This document shows positions 3,006-16,211 of a stretch of DNA of 64,000 bases, one piece after another. The notes beneath the pieces are model-generated. The model was not told the DNA's origin. It did not search any database and was given only the letters and a program-made list of their open reading frames with translations. Source of the stretch: Betaproteobacteria bacterium (lineage in GTDB: Bacteria; Pseudomonadota; Gammaproteobacteria; Burkholderiales; Burkholderiaceae_C); NCBI GenBank assembly GCA_013289985.1, contig JABCYW010000001.1, forward strand, positions 79,772 to 143,771, written 5' to 3'. Each line of letters starts with the position of its first letter. Position 1 is the first letter of the stretch. A program made the position numbers and the translations under genes.

Positions 3006-3388
3006 GTGGGGGTGTTCGAGAAGTTTGTTTTGTCGGTCGCTGCCGGGGTCGGCGTCGCGGCGGCCGGCGCACGGCCGGAGTCAGCTTGCAGCAGGCCCGT
3101 GAACAGGCCCGCGGCGGAGGGTTCAGATGGGGACGCTTTCGCGTGATCCCAGGGCATATTGTCGGGGACCTCGTCGCACCCGCCGTGACACCACGGATTG
3201 CAACGCAGGATGCGCCAGCCGGCCAGGCCGGCGCCGACGAGGGCGCCGTGCTTTTCAAGCGCCTGTATCGCGTAGGCGGAGCAGGTGGGCGTGAAGCGGC
3301 AGCTCTGGCCCACCCACGGGCTCAGCAGCAGGCGATAGGCACGCACCACGCCCACGAGCAGCGTGCGGGGCAGGTGCAGCAGCAGCAT
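3002..3388 (-). CDS. yidD: membrane protein insertion efficiency factor YidD, with a C-terminal extension
   Basis: The conserved core SPWVGQSCRFTPTCSAYA...RCNPWCHGGCDEVP is present. The Met at 3388 overlaps the rnpA stop as TGATG, suggesting translational coupling. The stop overlaps the yidC start. Confidence 0.8.
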   Translation of the reverse strand: MLLLHLPRTLLVGVVRAYRLLLSPWVGQSCRFTPTCSAYAIQALEKHGALVGAGLAGWRILRCNPWCHGGCDEVPDNMPWDHAKASPSEPSAAGLFTGLLQADSGRAPAAATPTPAATDKTNFSNTPT

Positions 3389-4092
3389 CAGGCCGCGCAT
3401 GGCGGTCCTTCCGGCGGCCTGGCCGTGGCGGGGCGAACCTTGCCGCCCTTGCCTTTGGCGGGCAGTTCGCCCGATGGCCGCGGCTTCAGGCGATCGCGTT
3501 CACCGCGAACGGCCCGGTCGAACAGCGCGCGCAGCTCTTCGCGCGCCGCTTCCTTCAAGGCATCGGACGCGGCGCTCGGGAACTCTTTCGGATCGAACGG
3601 CGAGCGCTGGCGCACCACCCACAGGCCGGGTTCCAGCTGCGGCGCGCAGGCGGACGCCACGTTGCGGATCTGGCGCTTGACCAGTGTTCGCGTGACCGCT
3701 CGCTTGGCGTGGCGCTTGGGCACGACGAGTCCCAGCCAACGAGCGATGCCGCCCGGAGCCGTCGGGGTTTCCACCATCCCGGACGGGCCCGGAACCTGCG
3801 GGTCGTCCACATCCGTCACCGAGGAATCGGAGCGGCCTGTGGATAACTCTGTAGACAAGCTGGCGGTAACCGGTGCATGACCGGTCGCGTCGACCTCGAG
3901 GCTCGCCGTCGCCAAAACGGGTGCCATCACGGAACGCACTCCCGGCCGCTTCAAAGGCAGCGGCCTGCCGACCAGGTGATGGACGGCAAAATGGGGGCTG
4001 CGCAGACGCATCGGCGTCGCGAGCACGCGCACGTAGTCCGCCGGCCGGACGATGCGGCCGAGCAGCTGGGAATCGAGGTCGCCTGCGGTCAT
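3388..4092 (-). CDS. rnpA: ribonuclease P protein component RnpA, carrying an about 75-aa internal low-complexity insertion
   Basis: An RnpA-like N-terminus is followed by the conserved RWLGLVVPKRHAKRAVTRTLVKRQIRNV motif. The two are split by a Ser/Thr/Pro/Ala/Val-rich in-frame insert. The gene sits in the rpmH-rnpA-yidD-yidC order. Confidence 0.8.
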   Translation of the reverse strand: MTAGDLDSQLLGRIVRPADYVRVLATPMRLRSPHFAVHHLVGRPLPLKRPGVRSVMAPVLATASLEVDATGHAPVTASLSTELSTGRSDSSVTDVDDPQVPGPSGMVETPTAPGGIARWLGLVVPKRHAKRAVTRTLVKRQIRNVASACAPQLEPGLWVVRQRSPFDPKEFPSAASDALKEAAREELRALFDRAVRGERDRLKPRPSGELPAKGKGGKVRPATARPPEGPPCAA

Positions 4093-4237
4093 GGCCGCCG
4101 GCCCGGTGTGCCGTGAAGCAGGAATTCAATGCGCTGCGGCGACGTCCTCGACGAGGAGGGCGACGCGGAGACGACGAAGGCGGCAGAAGCCGCCCTGGAA
4201 TTCCTTACCGGCGAAGCGTTCAGTCCGACGTCTGGAA

Positions 4238-4372
4238 TCAGACGGCGAGACGCTTGCGACCCTTGGCGCGACGAGCAGCGATGACGCTGCGGCCGCCACG
4301 GGTCTTCATGCGGACGAGGAAGCCGTGCGTACGGGCGCGACGGACTTTGGAGGGCTGGTAGGTACGCTTCAT
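4238..4372 (-). CDS. rpmH: 50S ribosomal protein L34
   Basis: Minus-strand translation gives [44 protein letters not shown], 44 aa. It is below the ORF-track size cutoff and was found by hand. Confidence 0.95.
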
Positions 4373-4482
4373 GGATGAAAATCTCCGGGGAACCCTCGAT
4401 TAGAGCAGAGAAACGCATTACGAGTCAACGACTTGGCACGAGCGGCCGTACGATGCGGGGGGATTGACCGCGCGCCGATTTC

Positions 4483-4491
4483 TGTGGATAA
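4483..4491 (-). promoter_or_regulatory. perfect DnaA box (TTATCCACA) in the rpmH-dnaA intergenic region
   Basis: tgtggataa at 4483-4491 is the reverse complement of the consensus DnaA box TTATCCACA. It lies about 60 bp upstream of dnaA. Confidence 0.6.
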
Positions 4492-4542
4492 CCGTCATTT
4501 CGCCGTTCAGGCGCGGGTAGAATCTGCCGGCTTGAGAAGAAC

Positions 4543-4551
4543 TTGTCCACA
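4543..4551 (+). promoter_or_regulatory. DnaA box variant (TTGTCCACA) abutting the dnaA start codon
   Basis: ttgtccaca sits immediately before the ATG at 4552. This is the classic position for dnaA autoregulation. Confidence 0.5.
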
Positions 4552-6006
4552 ATGTCCCTAGACCTTTGGCACCGGAGTTGCGAGCGCCTCGCCACCGAGT
4601 TGCCCGAACAGCAATTCAGCACCTGGATCCGGCCCTTGCCGCCCGCCGATTTCACCGACGTGGGCGACGGCACGGTGGCGCTCGTGCGCGTGCCCAACCG
4701 CTTCAAGCTCGACTGGATCCGCTCGCAATACGGCTCGCGCATCGAGTCGGTGCTCACCGAACTCGCCGGCAAGCCGGTGCGCCTCGAGCTGGCGCTCGCG
4801 CCGCGCGAGGCGCCGGCCCCCGGCCACGCCCACGTGCCCACCGGCAGCGGCTTCATCACCAGCAATCCGCCGCAGCGCATCGGCGCCGTGTTCGAGCAGG
4901 CGCTGGCCAACGCGCCGACGAACGGCCATGCCGCGGCGAGCGCGCCCGCGCAGCCGCGGCCCATGCACATCGCGCCGGCCATGAACTCGCACCGGCTCAA
5001 CCCGGCGCTCACCTTCGACACGCTGGTGGCCGGCCGCGCCAACCAGATGGCCCGCACCGCGGCGCTGCACGTGGCCGGCGCGCCTGGCGCCATGTACAAC
5101 CCGCTGTTCGTCTACGGCGGCGTGGGCCTGGGCAAGACCCACCTGGTGCACGCCGTGGGCAACCAGCTGCTCAAGGACAAGCCCGACGCCCGCGTGCTGT
5201 ACCTGCACGCCGAGCAGTTCATCTCCGACGTCGTCAAGAACTACCAGCGCAAGACCTTCGACGAACTGAAGGCCAAGTACCACTCGCTGGACCTGCTGCT
5301 GATCGACGACGTGCAGTTCTTCGCCGGCAAGGAACGCACGCAGGAAGAATTCTTCAATGCGTTCGAGGCGCTGCTGTCGCGCCGCGCGCACATCATCATG
5401 ACGAGCGACACCTATCCCAAGGGTCTGGCCGACATCGATGAACGCCTCACCAGCCGCTTCGACTCCGGCCTGACGGTGGCCATCGAGCCGCCCGAGCTGG
5501 AGATGCGCGTGGCCATCCTGATCCGCAAGGCCGAAGGCGAGCAGGCGCAGATGCCCGAGGAAGTGGCGTTCTTCATCGCCAAGAACGTGCGCGCCAACGT
5601 GCGCGAGCTCGAGGGCGCGCTGCGCAAGGTGCTGGCCTACTCGCGCTTCTCGCAGAAGGACATCAACATCGCCCTGGCGCGCGAGGCGCTCAAGGACCTG
5701 CTGTCCATCCAGAACCGCCAGATCTCCGTCGAGAACATCCAGAAGACGGTGGCCGATTTCTACAAGATCAAGGTGGCCGACATGTACAGCAAGAAGCGCC
5801 CGGCGAGCATCGCCCGCCCGCGCCAGATCGCCATGTACCTGGCCAAGGAGCTCACCCAGAAGAGCCTGCCCGAGATCGGCGAGCTCTTTGGCGGCCGCGA
5901 CCACACCACCGTGCTGCACGCCGTGCGCAAGATCGGCGGCGAGCGGCAGAAGAACACCGAACTGAACCAGCAACTCCACGTCCTGGAACAGACCCTGAAG
6001 GGATGA
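4552..6006 (+). CDS. dnaA: chromosomal replication initiator DnaA
   Basis: Walker [10 protein letters not shown], an AAA+ core, and a C-terminal DNA-binding domain (RDHTTVLHA). The ORF track begins at the TTG at 4543; the ATG at 4552 (MSLDLW) is preferred. Confidence 0.95.
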
Positions 6007-7490: not shown

Positions 7491-10103
<2,613 letters not shown>

Positions 10104-10116
10104 TGTGTCGGGTGAC

Positions 10117-10190
10117 GTAGGGCGCCGAAGTAATTGCGATTGGCGCCAAAGCTGTGCGACTGGGCGCCACAGTTCTTGCGATCGCCCTAC
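10117..10190. repeat. Left copy of an about 73-bp imperfect direct repeat made of about 21-bp TGCGAYT-containing units and bracketed by the inverted ends GTAGGGCG/CGCCCTAC
   Basis: gtagggcgccgaagtaattgcgattggcgccaaagctgtgcgactgggcgccacagttcttgcgatcgccctac. By eye it is about 75% identical to the block at 13295-13367. Confidence 0.5.
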
Positions 10191-10457
10191 GAAGCCTCTG
10201 TCAACTGAACAATCGTTGACGGCTGCGGGCGGTTGGACAGCAGCAGCGAGCCCGGCGACTGCGCGCACCGAGGCCACACGCGACCTATGCAATATCAGTA
10301 GCTTGCAGCACTCGCGGCAACGGCAGCTGCAGCCGAAGCAGCGATCGCTTCCCATCCGCCCTGCGCTTTCTTCAACACCTCAACGTCCGTTGGTGCAACC
10401 AGCCAGTGCATGTGGCATTCCAACGCACAACGCTCCTCCGACAATCTAGACTGAAAA

Positions 10458-11162
10458 CTACAGGCCAGAACTGCTCGTGCGTTCGCCCTCAACCTGCTCC
10501 TTCGGCAACCCCACAGTGAGGTAAGGAGCAATGAGTCTCGCGACCTCTTTGCAGCTCCGCACAAAGTCCACAAGCTGTTCCTTCGACGGTTGCCAGCCCA
10601 TGATGGACGTGATGGTCTCATTGCGCACAGCCAGCAACCCGAACACCGCATCAAGCAGCTTGGGCTCAAGCAGCTTCCATTCCGCAGCTTTCCGAAACAG
10701 CTTGTCTGCTGTCATCACATGAGATCCGACAGGTGCACGCATGGAGACGACTTGGCGAAGTAGTTCCTCCACCTCTATCCAAGCACGCTCAATGATCGAC
10801 AGCGGAGGAACGCCGGCCTGAACTTGTTCCGCCGCAGACAGCGAGTATTCGTCTGCGTAGTGCAGGCGATCAAAGTCTTCGGGAATGGAGACAGGACGAG
10901 GAATGTCATCGGAAGCAGCATCCCTTGTCTTCGCCCTCACCATGCGCTTCTTACGCAGCGCGTCGAGATCGAGCCGCACCCGATCCATCGTCTTTTCAAA
11001 CGTGAGCTTCAGTTTGCCTTTGTCATACTCGGCACTCTTGATGCGGTCAACAAGGCGCACGAGGGCACCGCGCACGATCACGATCACAACGCCACCCAGC
11101 AGGATGACGACGGCCGGCCAGCGCACCGCTTCAATGATCTTCGCCAACCCCGCAGCATCCAT
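10458..11162 (-). CDS. Hypothetical membrane-anchored protein, paralog 1 (N-terminal TM, charged linker, C-terminal helical domain with an AW.EVE...GWQP signature)
   Basis: The 234-aa product has a TM segment WPAVVILLGGVVIVIV. It is paralogous along its whole length to the upstream ORF 11247-12125 (shared LIDRVK after the TM, AW(I/Q)EV(E/R), (S/T)I(M/S)GWQP). It lies in the lower-GC block. Confidence 0.6.
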   Translation of the reverse strand: MDAAGLAKIIEAVRWPAVVILLGGVVIVIVRGALVRLVDRIKSAEYDKGKLKLTFEKTMDRVRLDLDALRKKRMVRAKTRDAASDDIPRPVSIPEDFDRLHYADEYSLSAAEQVQAGVPPLSIIERAWIEVEELLRQVVSMRAPVGSHVMTADKLFRKAAEWKLLEPKLLDAVFGLLAVRNETITSIMGWQPSKEQLVDFVRSCKEVARLIAPYLTVGLPKEQVEGERTSSSGL

Positions 11163-11246
11163 CCTAGCTCTCCCGATCCCTTTGCCTCGAAGTCTCGCAC
11201 GCCGTCGAGGCCAAACTACAGCCCAGCGCTTGTAGTGCGTTCACCT

Positions 11247-12044
11247 TCAATCGGCTACCTTCGGTAGACCCAGCGCAAGGTGCATGCTCAATAGTGTCAC
11301 GACCTCCCCCGCGTTCTGCACGTATTCCAAGACTTGAACCTGGTTCGGCTGCCAACCAATCGTGCTCATCGCATCGTTGTGGATCATCATGAGTTCAACG
11401 ACAGCTTTGTAGAGCGAACCCGTGAGCTTGCCTGCTCGATGTGCACGCCCAACAAGCTGCTCATCCGGAATGCCATCGAGCGACCACCAGTCCGTCGCAG
11501 TCTTCTCCAATCCGAGCACTTTGTAGAGCATCCCACGCACCTCTTGCCAAGCGTGGTGAATCACAACGGGTGGAGCATTCTTGTAGACCTCCATCATGCG
11601 GAGCCAGTTGCGCTGGTCATCCTCGTAGTCCTTCATGCTGAACATGGGAGTGCCAGGCAGAGGCATCGCGGCATCTCTGAAGCGATAGGGCTTTGGCTGG
11701 CCTTGCGCAGCAGCTTCAGTATCAACCTCTTCGATCATGCGCCGGACGCCCTTGTCCGTTGCCTCCGGCTTGACATCCTCGACAGTTGGTTTCTGCTTCT
11801 CAACCTCTTCCTTGGCAACCGCGACGTTCTCCTTGACTTCGCCCAGTTGGTCGGCGATGTCAACGGTGACGCCTTCTTTGCTTGCACTGACCTTCTTGAC
11901 GCGATCGATGAGCGCACCGATCTTGGCCTTCTGCTGGACGAGGAAGACGACCACCACGAGCGGCCAAGCAAACGCAGCAATGAGCGTGACAAGGTGCCCA
12001 GTCTGCTTCTCGATGAAGCTCAGTATCAGCTCAGCCCATTCCAT
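11247..12044 (-). CDS. Hypothetical membrane-anchored protein, paralog 2
   Basis: TM segment LVTLIAAFAWPLVVVVFLV, a coiled/charged linker, and a C-terminal domain homologous to paralog 1. The ORF track starts at 12125; the start chosen here is the Met (MEWAEL) at 12044 just before the TM. The true start is uncertain. Confidence 0.55.
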   Translation of the reverse strand: MEWAELILSFIEKQTGHLVTLIAAFAWPLVVVVFLVQQKAKIGALIDRVKKVSASKEGVTVDIADQLGEVKENVAVAKEEVEKQKPTVEDVKPEATDKGVRRMIEEVDTEAAAQGQPKPYRFRDAAMPLPGTPMFSMKDYEDDQRNWLRMMEVYKNAPPVVIHHAWQEVRGMLYKVLGLEKTATDWWSLDGIPDEQLVGRAHRAGKLTGSLYKAVVELMMIHNDAMSTIGWQPNQVQVLEYVQNAGEVVTLLSMHLALGLPKVAD

Positions 12045-12322
12045 GCCCTGCTCCTCTTCTTCTTTGCCGCGAAGTCTCCCACACCAGCGACTGCAGCGCA
12101 CGAAGCTCATTGCCTGCGCCGCCATCGTCCTGCTCTCTGCTCACGTCCAGGCATACGTTTTCATTTTGCTGCGAGCGGCAGACCTCATTCCGCGCTCATT
12201 GATACAGCCACCCCTATTTCGGGTGGTTGCGCGAAGCGCCCGGCATCGGCCCAATGATCGGTCGCGCGCCACTTCAGCATTGAATTGCGTAGCCCGTCCA
12301 CCTACACGGTACTGACCGCCAC

Positions 12323-12817
12323 ATGTCGAACGTTCTCAAGGACATCTACAAGTCCAAGGGTAAGCTGGAAAACTACTTTGACGACAAAACGCCAGTTGCT
12401 CTCTGGCGTGGTCAAAAGCGAGATCTGATCAAGAAAAAGCGGGGGGGCCTCTACCCTGAGCTTACCGGCTTCGTGCGTGGCGACGGAACGTTTCGCATTC
12501 CCGACGTCGATGTCTTCGAGCGCGAGAGCGACGGCGTCACGATGGTCCGCGGTTGTCGGTGTGTTGCAGGCGAAGGCGACTACCGCGGTGTGTCGACGTT
12601 CGACGTCATGCCTGATCTTGGCAAATCATTCATGTACTTCCGTATCCCGGGTGGCACGGCAATCCCGGAAGCGCTTGCGGTGACCAAGGACACGTTCAAC
12701 CGACGCTTCGGTGGTTACCATTACACCGTTGCGCCGAAAGACGACATGCCGTTGAGCCTCTTCCTTGTCTGGCTGGGTGCGATCGAGGCGAGCCTGAAGG
12801 CTGAAGGAGGCAAGTGA
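12323..12817 (+). CDS. Hypothetical 164-aa protein, candidate toxin/effector of a two-gene module
   Basis: An ORF in the lower-GC block with no confidently recognised domain. It contains FERES and GGYHYTVAPKDD motifs. Its stop overlaps the start of the following 87-aa ORF as ATGA. Confidence 0.5.
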   Translation: MSNVLKDIYKSKGKLENYFDDKTPVALWRGQKRDLIKKKRGGLYPELTGFVRGDGTFRIPDVDVFERESDGVTMVRGCRCVAGEGDYRGVSTFDVMPDLGKSFMYFRIPGGTAIPEALAVTKDTFNRRFGGYHYTVAPKDDMPLSLFLVWLGAIEASLKAEGGK

Positions 12818-13077
12818 TGACCGAACCGATCCGATTGACCGACCAGGCAGTGATCACCGCTGCCCGGGCCTTGATCATGGAAAACAAGCGCTGTGCGGCG
12901 AAGCTCAAGGACGACTCGCTTTCAGACGAACAGGCCGAGTATTTCGGTGACTACGTCCAGTTGTTGGACGCAGCGATGGGCGAGATCGAGGCGCTCTACG
13001 TCGAGCGTCAGGCGACGAATCGGCACATGGGGTCGTTCGACGCGCTCTACGAGTCGGTCTTGCTCGACAAGGACTGA
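12814..13077 (+). CDS. Hypothetical 87-aa acidic helical protein, candidate immunity/antitoxin partner
   Basis: It has a 4-nt overlap with the upstream ORF. It is small, acidic and predicted all-helical (DEQAEYFGDYVQLLDAAMGEIEALYVERQ), which is typical of cognate immunity proteins. Confidence 0.45.
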   Translation: MMTEPIRLTDQAVITAARALIMENKRCAAKLKDDSLSDEQAEYFGDYVQLLDAAMGEIEALYVERQATNRHMGSFDALYESVLLDKD

Positions 13078-13113
13078 TGCGGGTCAGCCTGTTTTTCCGC
13101 AAGCCCGATCCGA

Positions 13114-13150
13114 GCGCCCTGGGCTCGACGGAGGGCGCGGCGGGATATTT
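13114..13150 (+). terminator. Candidate intrinsic terminator after the two-gene module
   Basis: Inverted repeat GCGCCCT-(11 nt)-AGGGCGC at 13114-13138 is followed by the AT-rich stretch gggatatttcattta. Confidence 0.3.
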
Positions 13151-13280
13151 CATTTATCGTGTCACACCCGTCGGAACCTGTCAGTAATCGTGTCACTTCT
13201 CTTGGACAGGCGTGACACGGAAAGTGAAAAAGGCGAGCAAAATCAATGGTGTTCATTTCACTTTTCGTGTCACCCGACAT
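13147..13280. repeat. Array of four CGTGTCAC-core repeats (three direct, one inverted) with interleaved inverted repeats, in an AT-richer non-coding stretch
   Basis: tcgtgtcac at 13157-65, 13188-96 and 13265-73; gtgacacg at 13212-19. Repeats 1 and 3 share an extended TTCATTT..TCGTGTCACMCCCG context. Interleaved inverted pairs cctgtc/gacagg and cgtgtcac/gtgacacg follow an A-B-A'-B' arrangement. Confidence 0.5.
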
Positions 13281-13294
13281 GAGTTGTACGCCGC

Positions 13295-13367
13295 GTAGGG
13301 CGCCAGAGTAAATGCGACTCGCGCCACAGTTCTGCGACTGAACGGCGCTAGTTGGTGCGACTACCGG
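13295..13367. repeat. Right copy of the about 73-bp imperfect direct repeat (TGCGACT units)
   Basis: gtagggcgccagagtaaatgcgactcgcgccacagttctgcgactgaacggcgctagttggtgcgactaccgg. It aligns with 10117-10190 and ends 1 nt before the ATG at 13368. Confidence 0.45.
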
Positions 13368-13577
13368 ATGTCGCGAATCCTTCCCAGACACTGGCTCGCG
13401 CTGGCTCAAAAGTCTGGCGTCCCCGACTTGGCGCAGTCGATGGTTCTGCTCGCAAAGGGCGTCGAGACTGCGCTGGAAGTTGCGAAGGAGATGTTGCCCG
13501 AAGGCTTTCCGGATCTTCTCTGGCACTCCATCGCGACCGGCACAAGTCGCCAGGCAAAGACTTTCTTGGCCGCGTAG
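13368..13577 (+). CDS. Possible small helical protein of 69 aa, low confidence
   Basis: The ORF starts immediately after the right repeat block and has a helical composition. There is no domain support, and the competing ORF 13352-14263 in another frame looks spurious. Confidence 0.25.
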   Translation: MSRILPRHWLALAQKSGVPDLAQSMVLLAKGVETALEVAKEMLPEGFPDLLWHSIATGTSRQAKTFLAA

Positions 13578-13607
13578 CTGACGGCGGAGGAAGTCACCAA
13601 GCAGGAT

Positions 13608-14231
13608 TTGATATCCATGCCGTCCATTCTGACAATCATTCGCGCAAGCCTCTCGGCGTTGGCCCTCGCTGCCATCGGTGCGCAACTGGTGCTGCACGTT
13701 GGCGCGTCGCACAGCGTTCTGAACTTCTTCAGCTATTTCACGAATCTCTCCAACCTGGTCGCCGCGTCGGTCTTGCTCCTTTGCGCGTTCGACGTGGGGT
13801 CAAGCAGCAAGGGATCGATGACGCTGGCGCGATACGTGTCGGCTGTGAACATGGCCGTGGTTGGTCTCGTGTTTGCCGTGCTGCTCCGAAACACGGATTT
13901 CGGGACGCTTCTTCCATGGGTCAACTTCGTCCTCCACTACGTCATGCCCGTCGCTGTCGTCCTGGACTGGCTGGCCGATCCACCGGGGCTGAAGCTGCAC
14001 TCGAACAGCCACTTTCTTCCGCTCCTGTTCCCCGCGTTCTATCTCGTGTATGTCTTGCTGCGCGGCGCTTCGACAGGTTGGTATCCCTATCCGTTTCTGA
14101 ACCCGGCGAACGTTGGTGGCTACGGCGGGGTCGCCGCGTACTCTCTGGGCATCGCCGTCGCAGTCCTTCTGGCGAGTTGGTTGTTGCTCGCAGCTGGCAA
14201 CCGCCGCGCAAGCGCGAAATCGCGCGCCTGA
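13608..14231 (+). CDS. Pr6Pr-family (FAR-17a/AIG1-like) integral membrane protein
   Basis: A 207-aa product with multiple TM helices and conserved Trp/Pro residues (LHYVMPVAVVLDWLADPP, FLPLLFPAFYLVYVLLRG). Its GC content is still somewhat lower than the core genome. Confidence 0.6.
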   Translation: MISMPSILTIIRASLSALALAAIGAQLVLHVGASHSVLNFFSYFTNLSNLVAASVLLLCAFDVGSSSKGSMTLARYVSAVNMAVVGLVFAVLLRNTDFGTLLPWVNFVLHYVMPVAVVLDWLADPPGLKLHSNSHFLPLLFPAFYLVYVLLRGASTGWYPYPFLNPANVGGYGGVAAYSLGIAVAVLLASWLLLAAGNRRASAKSRA

Positions 14232-14334
14232 CCCAGCGGCGCATGAACGTACCTTCTTTCTGAACCCGTCGTTCATCAGCCTTCTGAAGCAGGATTGAAC
14301 GGCGCCCGGCATGTGTCGGGAATGTCCGCGGCAC

Positions 14335-15080: not shown

Positions 15081-16211
15081 TCAATGGCCCGATGCGGCGC
15101 TCTTGATCGGCGCCGCGGCATTGCGCTCGAGCCACGCGCGTTGCACCGGGTCGATCAGCATCCAGCCGCGGCCGTCGGTCCTGCGCTCCAGCATCCCCTT
15201 GGCCGCAAGCGCTTCGAGCGCGCGGCTGATGCTGGAGGGCGCGACCCTGGCGCCCAGCTGAGCGGCGGCCCAGACGACGCTGTCGGCGGCGGTCGGCGGC
15301 CTGTCCTCGAACACCAGGCGCAGCGCGACCTGCTGCAGGCCGGTGAGGCCGCGCCAGGTGGCCGACCACTTGTTGGGCGAGTGCTGGCTGAGCATCTCGT
15401 CGAGCGCGCGATCCAGCGTCCAGGCCGGGTTGGCCATCACCAGGCTCACGGCATGCAGGAACGGCTCGGGCTGGGTGCCCAGCTGCTGGAAGGTCTCGTG
15501 GGCCAGCACCTGGTTCAGGTCGCGCCGCGTCGCCTCGTGGAACTTGCGCGCCACGAAGCCGATGAAATCCAGGCCTAGCGGCTCGTAGCCCTCGGTCTTC
15601 GCGAAGCCGTACAGCGGCGTGTTGGTGCGCGAGAACATGTCCAGCAGCTGCACGTCGGACGAGCCGGAGAAGATCGCGCCGATGCGCTTGTCGGCCTGCG
15701 TGAGCGCGGCGCGCAGCGACGCCGAGATCTGCGGGCCGTTCTTCGCCGACGCGATCGACTGGAATTCGTCGAAGACCAGCACCACGTCATGCGTCGTCTC
15801 CTCCAGGATCTGGGTGAGCAGGCTGTCGAGCATCAGCGCGGGCCGGTCCGGCGTCTGGCGCTTCGGCGGATCGCCGAGGTCGATGCTCGCGCCCATCACG
15901 CCCAGCCGCTTCACCGGCGTGCTGCCCGTGCGCTTCATGCCCCGGGGCTGCACGCTGAGGCCTTCCAGCGCCTTCTGCAGCGCGTAGTTGATGCCTTGCA
16001 GCGGGTCGTCCATGTCCATCCAGCAGTCGATGTAGACGGCGATGGCGCCGCGCGACTGCACGTACGGGATGACCTCGTCGCGCAGCAGCGTGGTCTTGCC
16101 GGTCTGGCGCGGGCCGAACATCGCGATGCGCTCGTGCGCGAGCAGGCGCTTGCCCAGCGCGGTGGCCAGCGGCGCGCGGGCGTGGTGCCACGCCTGGGTC
16201 AGGTCGGACAT
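15081..16211 (-). CDS. AAA+ superfamily ATP-binding protein (COG1373-like) with a C-terminal winged helix
   Basis: Walker A GPRQTGKTT, Walker B VLVFDEF, and a C-terminal wHTH-like region. Confidence 0.8.
   Translation of the reverse strand: MSDLTQAWHHARAPLATALGKRLLAHERIAMFGPRQTGKTTLLRDEVIPYVQSRGAIAVYIDCWMDMDDPLQGINYALQKALEGLSVQPRGMKRTGSTPVKRLGVMGASIDLGDPPKRQTPDRPALMLDSLLTQILEETTHDVVLVFDEFQSIASAKNGPQISASLRAALTQADKRIGAIFSGSSDVQLLDMFSRTNTPLYGFAKTEGYEPLGLDFIGFVARKFHEATRRDLNQVLAHETFQQLGTQPEPFLHAVSLVMANPAWTLDRALDEMLSQHSPNKWSATWRGLTGLQQVALRLVFEDRPPTAADSVVWAAAQLGARVAPSSISRALEALAAKGMLERRTDGRGWMLIDPVQRAWLERNAAAPIKSAASGH

Follow-up and report, generated by a model that had tools for sequence, protein, structure and literature searches.

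The window, as the whole 64,000-nucleotide (nt) stretch analyzed here is called, is the region around the replication origin in a soil member of the Burkholderiales, with dnaA, dnaN, and gyrB present and a GyrB that clusters with that of Scleromatobacter humisilvae at 90% identity. Immediately downstream of gyrB lies a 3.2-kb island, and inside it are two overlapping genes, open reading frames (ORFs) 1 and 2, which are the subject of this work. An earlier reading of the sequence alone (the original prediction) assigned these 164-amino-acid (aa) and 87-aa products a toxin–immunity architecture. This has been borne out, with ORF1 now placed as a predicted toxin of the Tse2 family and ORF2 as a predicted immunity protein of the Tsi2 family. 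Tse2 and Tsi2 were first discovered as a type VI secretion system (T6SS) weapon of Pseudomonas aeruginosa, where Tse2 is a small bacteriostatic toxin with cytoplasmic action and an ADP-ribosyltransferase (ART)-like fold. Public sources name both proteins of the window "hypothetical protein," as RefSeq does for a homologous Pseudoalteromonas pair, and naming them as a toxin–immunity pair is useful for annotation.

Layout of the gene pair

ORF1 occupies positions 12323–12817 of the forward strand and encodes a basic protein of 164 aa (18.3 kDa, isoelectric point 9.02). ORF2 follows on the same strand at 12817–13077 and encodes 86 aa if translation starts at the ATG at 12817, or 87 aa if it starts at the GTG at 12814. 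Its product is small (9.7 kDa), acidic (isoelectric point 4.46), and helical, as first described, with three helices predicted by AlphaFold2 at residues 7–30, 37–67, and 72–81.

The junction between the genes reads aaGTGATGa, with the ORF1 stop codon TGA at 12815–12817. A start at GTG 12814 gives a 4-nt overlap with ORF1 (GTGA), and a start at ATG 12817 gives a 1-nt overlap with its stop codon (TGATG). The ATGA overlap given in the original prediction is therefore incorrect, and the case for translational coupling that went with it is unchanged. A strong Shine–Dalgarno site for ORF2, GAAGGAGG, can be read within the 3′ end of ORF1 at 12804–12811 (forward strand), 5 nt upstream of ATG 12817 but only 2 nt upstream of GTG 12814. 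Public gene calls take ATG 12817 as the start, which makes the 86-aa protein the likelier product. Judged from this junction, the layout of the two genes is suited to coupled translation.

It had been noted that ORF1 has no obvious Shine–Dalgarno site, and direct reading of the sequence likewise finds no AGGAGG-like site in front of its ATG. The start codon itself is confirmed by N termini that are conserved among homologues. Compared with a relative that is 87% identical, the ratio of nonsynonymous to synonymous substitution rates (dN/dS) is 0.083 for ORF1 and 0.053 for ORF2, which argues that both ORFs are real genes under strong purifying selection. The GC content at third codon positions (GC3), 0.70 for ORF1 and 0.84 for ORF2, is typical for a coding frame.

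Family membership of the two proteins

The sole Pfam match of ORF1 is PF18648 (ADPRTs_Tse2, "Tse2 ADP-ribosyltransferase toxin"), which covers aa 8–144 with 43.5 bits (E = 6.5e-11) against a curated cut-off of 26.6 bits. The same family is found in all 13 of the 13 database homologues of ORF1. ART models were among the checks suggested at the outset, and they were the correct lead. With phmmer, ORF1 finds the solved Tse2 chain 5AKO_C at E = 1.1e-5, and a profile of the ORF1 family finds it at E = 2.7e-10. An AlphaFold2 model of ORF1 computed from a 13-sequence alignment has a mean predicted local distance difference test score (pLDDT) of 91.2 and a predicted template modeling score (pTM) of 0.86. 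When compared with the Protein Data Bank (PDB) by Foldseek, this model matches 5AKO_C over 155 columns at 23% identity, with E = 8.9e-8, a probability of 1.00, and template modeling (TM) scores of 0.61 and 0.65. Tse2 is the only significant PDB match of the model; the runner-up has E = 0.13.

The residues thought to matter in Tse2 also recur. The predicted catalytic pocket of Tse2 comprises R14, T79, S80, and H122, and a T79A/S80A variant is inactive (bioRxiv 10.64898/2026.06.15.732508). When the Tse2 sequence, verified against the PDB chain, is aligned with the family (alignment A4), three of these four residues are kept in ORF1: R14 is matched by R29, S80 by S91, and H122 by H133. All three are invariant across the family, as are L27, R58, D61, G89, P115, P138, M142, and L151 (ORF1 numbering). 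The two motifs that the original prediction had singled out in ORF1 are both present, FERES at aa 65–69 and GGYHYTVAPKDD at aa 130–141. The HYTVAP motif is the signature of the Tse2 family, and its histidine aligns with H122 of Tse2; thus, GGYHYTVAPKDD of ORF1 contains the predicted catalytic histidine. Sequence signature and modeled fold together identify ORF1 as a probable Tse2-family toxin. That the arginine, serine, and histidine stay invariant in distant members supports the active site proposed for Tse2.

The relationship of ORF2 to Tsi2 is more remote and is recognizable only through intermediate sequences. ORF2 alone matched nothing in Pfam, NCBIfam, PADLOC, PHROGs, or the PDB sequences. 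Small ORFs found downstream of ORF1 homologues align with ORF2, and a profile built from their alignment (A2) retrieves the Tsi2 entries 5AKO_A, 3RQ9, 3STQ, and 4C18 from the PDB over their full length, with E-values from 1.8e-9 to 3.9e-9. When ORF2 and its closest relative are left out of the profile, it still reaches 63.5 bits with ORF2 and 39.3 bits with Tsi2. The Pfam family PF21643 (T6SS_Tsi2-like) weakly matches 3 of 18 members of the ORF2 family. In a Foldseek comparison of the AlphaFold2 model of ORF2 with the PDB, Tsi2 chains rank 3, 7, 9, 12, and 13, with TM scores of 0.56–0.74, several of them at 0.62–0.74. Tsi2 binds Tse2 through the acidic-patch residues E38 and D45, and D45 is required for the binding (Li et al. 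2012). Aligned by profile, D45 matches D51 of ORF2, a residue invariant in the ORF2 clade, and E38 falls on G44, with the acidic residues E41 and D45 of ORF2 close by. The toxin-binding interface of Tsi2-like proteins is expected to covary with the toxin. On the strength of the intermediate sequences and the conserved gene order, ORF2 is accepted as a putative member of the Tsi2 family.

The P. aeruginosa pair (PA2702/PA2703; structures 5AKO, 3RQ9, 3STQ, and 4C18) resembles the pair in the window in several ways. Both are toxin-first bicistrons that encode a basic toxin and an acidic, helical immunity protein, and the sizes are alike, with 164 and 86 aa here compared with 157 residues for the Tse2 sequence and 77 for the Tsi2 chain in 5AKO. 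The toxins share their fold, the R/S/H pocket residues, and the HYT-x-x-P signature, and both pairs are chromosomal orphans that lie apart from T6SS genes. The differences are also clear. Identity between the toxins is only 23–26%, and the C-terminal helix of ORF1 is about 10 residues shorter than that of Tse2 (R133–R156), which is the main Hcp1 interface. ORF1 also lacks a stretch of about 17 residues that Tse2 has after its LYR motif. Finally, the host here is a soil Burkholderiales.

Homologous loci and the role of the pair

The two genes are linked. Among the first 20 loci examined around ORF1 homologues, 18 have an ORF of 76–102 aa that begins between −25 and +32 nt of the toxin stop codon. 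Adjacency had been put forward as a test of the pairing, and the idea survives: a hidden Markov model scan of all fetched loci finds a Tsi2-like ORF directly downstream in 29 of the 29 loci with a toxin match. At locus L001, the toxin is 57% identical to ORF1 and its partner 45% identical to ORF2. The toxins of Frateuria flava (L003), Frateuria sp. (L004), a Gammaproteobacteria metagenome-assembled genome (MAG; L005), and an Entotheonellaceae MAG (L009) are 46–51% identical to ORF1, each with a Tsi2-like gene directly downstream.

In these last four loci the pair adjoins T6SS core genes. The neighbors include TagJ, TssE, TssF, TssG, and ClpV, together with VgrG in Frateuria, and in F. flava two Tse2-like toxin genes flank clpV, each followed by a Tsi2-like ORF. 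The pair in the window differs from these in lying beside gyrB rather than beside clpV, tssE, tssF, tssG, or vgrG. Within the 64-kb window, ORF1 and ORF2 form an orphan pair away from T6SS genes, as in P. aeruginosa, where the tse2 locus (PA2702) stands apart from vgrG and the other effector genes tabulated in a review.

Among 1.84 billion proteins, the Tse2 family has 264 representatives (50% clustering) at E ≤ 1e-3 and 101 at E ≤ 1e-10. The family, together with its Tsi2 partners, occurs in Burkholderiales, Xanthomonadales-like, Caulobacter, Alteromonadales, and Polyangia genomes. Of the full-length members listed, most stand alone as proteins of about 140–190 aa, and many entries are shorter fragments. 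A stand-alone protein fits cargo carried in a lumen better than it fits fusion to VgrG, PAAR, or Rhs carriers. Only 1 of 72,556 plasmids has a Tse2-family match, on an 826-kb chromid, and none of 50,697 phage records has one; therefore, the pair is not a typical plasmid or phage module.

Loss of the toxin with retention of the immunity gene is seen repeatedly among the relatives. A Vitreoscilla MAG (L002) carries the same cassette as the window with a clean 237-bp deletion of the toxin start and first 57 codons, and its immunity gene is intact. Truncated, frameshifted, or relic toxins stand beside intact immunity genes in L017, L019, and L020. In L021–L023, which belong to one contig family, the immunity gene is found alone at 85% identity with a dN/dS of 0.069, indicating purifying selection. 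Locus L011 has an extra orphan immunity gene, and among close relatives there are more immunity clusters than toxin clusters. A pattern of this kind is to be expected where immunity guards a cell against toxin from its neighbors, and it is characteristic of interbacterial weapons.

The explanation favored for the pair as a whole, with moderate confidence, is that ORF1 and ORF2 form a toxin–immunity module of the Tse2/Tsi2 family whose T6SS-type action would follow that of the P. aeruginosa pair. By this analogy, ORF2 would bind ORF1 one-to-one in the cytoplasm of the producer and block its active site. Once free, ORF1 would be packed inside the lumen of an Hcp hexamer and delivered by a T6SS into neighboring bacteria; P. 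aeruginosa Tse2 is a cargo of Hcp1 (PMC12133291; bioRxiv 10.64898/2026.06.15.732508), and ORF1, at 18 kDa, falls within the sizes known for Hcp cargo. Protection would extend to kin cells and to cells that have kept immunity alone. In the target cell, ORF1 might halt growth by an ART-like modification of a conserved cytoplasmic target. This last step is unproven even for Tse2, because its enzymatic activity and target are unknown according to a 2025 review (PMC12133291), and reviews disagree on whether ART activity of Tse2 was shown.

Besides the uncertainty over Tse2 itself, several results weigh against this reading. Neither a Pfam scan of ten large ORFs nor tblastn with six T6SS proteins turned up a T6SS gene in the window, and at most homologous loci a T6SS gene is absent within about 7 kb. 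The surroundings of L001 consist of mobile-element and defense genes (ArdC, ParB, a resolvase, an MmeI-type enzyme, and TIR). In ORF1, the residue equivalent to T79 of Tse2 is a valine (V90), in a column that is variable across the whole family. The assignment of ORF2 meets resistance as well: phmmer with ORF2 found no Tsi2 in the PDB, ORF2 has no match to PF21643 at E ≤ 0.01, and a profile of its narrow clade (A5) compared with Tsi2 by hhalign gave a nonsignificant E of 0.12. None of the Tsi2 chains matched by the ORF2 model in Foldseek is significant (E = 1.3–2.5), as is expected for short helical proteins.

Part of this evidence would suit a module that is not secreted, in which the Tse2 fold serves addiction, stabilization, or abortive infection. 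The partner would then be a labile or titratable antitoxin that stabilizes the island or answers stress or phage. The pair, as a compact bicistron with coupled translation on an island gained by horizontal transfer, looks much like a toxin–antitoxin (TA) module, the 1.1-kb cassette it belongs to is found in differing neighborhoods, and the scarcity of nearby T6SS genes and the setting of L001 both point the same way. Tse2–Tsi2 itself was noted to share traits with TA systems, opposite charge among them, although the same study concluded that the pair has features distinct from TA systems (Li et al. 2012). As in type II TA modules, the operon has two translationally coupled genes and an acidic neutralizer that is expected to bind the toxin. 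Unlike in those modules, the toxin gene comes first, and the neutralizer lacks a recognizable DNA-binding domain for the autoregulation known from type II antitoxins, with no helix-turn-helix, ribbon-helix-helix, or AbrB family found in Pfam or NCBIfam. The ORF1 family corresponds to no known TA toxin family, PADLOC gives no defense-system match, and the near absence from plasmids and absence from phages are not what such a module would suggest. The four loci embedded in T6SS clusters also speak for secretion, and immunity-only genes under purifying selection are more easily explained as protection against an incoming toxin. Between a TA module and a secreted effector with its immunity protein, the evidence leans toward the latter; a nonsecreted role is unlikely, though it is the leading alternative.

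Two further possibilities carry much less weight. It is very unlikely that the pair is a decaying relic in which the toxin is catalytically dead and the immunity gene alone functions. Toxin decay is frequent in relatives (L002, L017, L019, and L020), and the valine at the T79 position would fit a dead enzyme, but that position varies in the whole family, and ORF1 is full length, retains R29, S91, H133, and every other family-invariant residue, and has a dN/dS of 0.083. An extremely improbable reading makes ORF1 a secreted guanyl-specific ribonuclease of the barnase/RNase Sa type and ORF2 its barstar-like inhibitor. The original prediction had mentioned a likeness to RNase Sa, without calling it, from the motifs FERES and YHYTV, which recall FQNRES and YHEYTV, and a nuclease-like activity of Tse2 was speculated on before its structure was solved (Li et al. 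2012). The likeness does not hold up. No ribonuclease family matches ORF1 in Pfam or NCBIfam, the structural matches that Foldseek lists from the PDB include no microbial RNase, with Tse2 alone significant, and the motifs occupy conserved positions of the Tse2 family. With neither a ribonuclease family nor a ribonuclease fold found, the resemblance appears superficial.

The preferred reading, a Tse2/Tsi2 effector–immunity pair, places the two genes in a family that is already described, and in other respects the pair is ordinary and holds no surprise for the specialist. Its interest is comparative. Tse2/Tsi2 is usually treated as an effector pair of P. aeruginosa, and it proves to be a small yet taxonomically wide family, sometimes found in T6SS clusters and often as orphan cassettes, in which toxins are often lost and immunity kept. 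The diverse homologues are a comparative resource for Tse2 biology and could aid in finding the target of Tse2.

The surrounding island

The island that holds the pair has a GC content of 56–60%, compared with 64–72% in the flanks, and its genes have GC3 values of 0.67–0.84, compared with 0.91–0.97 for most flanking genes. This composition marks the island as probably foreign and horizontally acquired. Within it, a conserved core cassette of about 1.1 kb (12188–13287) is 87% identical in a relative that has other neighboring genes.

The cassette begins with a conserved upstream region at 12188–12322 (forward strand), which is the presumed promoter and leader of the pair. Homology starts at 12188 with L024 (a related contig), L025, and L026, at 87% identity, and at 12209 with L002. 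The intergenic region that ORF1 shares with the divergent gene upstream spans 12126–12322, which agrees with the 197 bp originally given. A promoter scan found no sigma-70 consensus in this region, the predicted fold of the leader RNA is nothing unusual (z = −0.83), and Rfam returned only chance-level miRNA matches over 9800–14300. A hairpin, CCACCC-N7-GGGTGG, had been reported in the region at 12196–12214; it is present, 12 nt away at 12208–12226. This is its single match in the window, where none is expected by chance, and it is partly retained in L002.

At its 3′ end the cassette carries four copies of an 18-mer, TTTCAYTTNTCGTGTCAC, at 13148–13273, three of them forward and one inverted. 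These are the only matches in the window, where 0.10 would be expected. The inverted copy forms an 18-bp palindrome with a 26-nt spacer, and the cluster is kept downstream of tsi2 in L002 and L024. The 18-mers look like putative protein-binding sites.

An imperfect direct repeat brackets the low-GC island. Its left copy (10116–10181) lies directly after the gyrB stop codon, and its right copy (13294–13360), of 67 nt, is 78% identical to the left. The repeat sequence (10116–10292 and 13294–13360 in the window, 2779–3101 in L002) has an internal GGCGCC-N-TGCGA periodicity and CGTAGGGCG/CGCCCTACG ends. In L002, the TTTCAYTTNTCGTGTCAC cluster and the repeat are contiguous as one unit, of which there is a second copy. 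This suggests that the cluster and repeat make up a junction element of about 200–250 bp between variable cassettes, and such an element would bracket variable cassettes both here and in a related MAG. No recombinase, integrase, or transposase gene is visible in the island. A more speculative and quite unlikely proposal is that the Tse2-like cassette is a T6SS-independent mobile toxin–immunity unit whose movement and exchange, at a hotspot beside gyrB, depend on a previously undescribed junction element made of four TTTCAYTTNTCGTGTCAC sites with a GGCGCC...TGCGA repeat block after them.

Two relatives show further Tse2-like sequences. In L024, 14 codons of a second tse2 copy survive as a relic (YHCTVAPKDDMPLS, at 11054–11092) some 800 bp downstream from the intact pair, evidence for an earlier duplication and decay of the cassette. 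In L002, a second, divergent Tse2-family gene occupies 267–746 on the reverse strand, with a PF18648 score of 26.6 bits that is exactly the cut-off, and a small, acidic, helical-looking ORF lies downstream of it. Between this divergent pair and the deleted tse2 cassette is a gene for a 724-aa DUF4259/DUF4253 protein (3377–5551, reverse strand). The region looks like an island of several toxin–immunity cassettes.

The window island also holds two paralogous genes on the reverse strand, at 10458–11162 and 11247–12125, whose products share 24% identity over 207 aa (E = 1e-13). The 292-aa paralogue has a weak N-terminal match to DUF948, and for the C-terminal domain common to both, Pfam, NCBIfam, PADLOC, and PHROGs gave nothing significant. 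That the paralogues are functionally linked to the toxin–immunity pair was considered and rejected, as relatives have another neighbor in that place: an unrelated 144-aa gene in L024 and the DUF4259/DUF4253 gene in L002. Public pipelines also call a 36-aa ORF at 13077–13187 (forward strand), whose ATG overlaps the tsi2 stop codon (TGATG). It is not conserved as coding, since L024 reads ACG at the start codon and lacks 1 nt there, and it is probably a false call made across the repeat region.

Just beyond the island are a gene for a Far-17a/AIG1-like membrane protein (13608–14231, forward strand) and one for an AAA/STAND-like ATPase (15081–16211, reverse strand), which matches AAA_14, AAA_22, and ATPase_2. 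Because L024 lacks both the ATPase and the membrane-protein genes at this place, the position downstream of gyrB seems to be a hotspot of variation.

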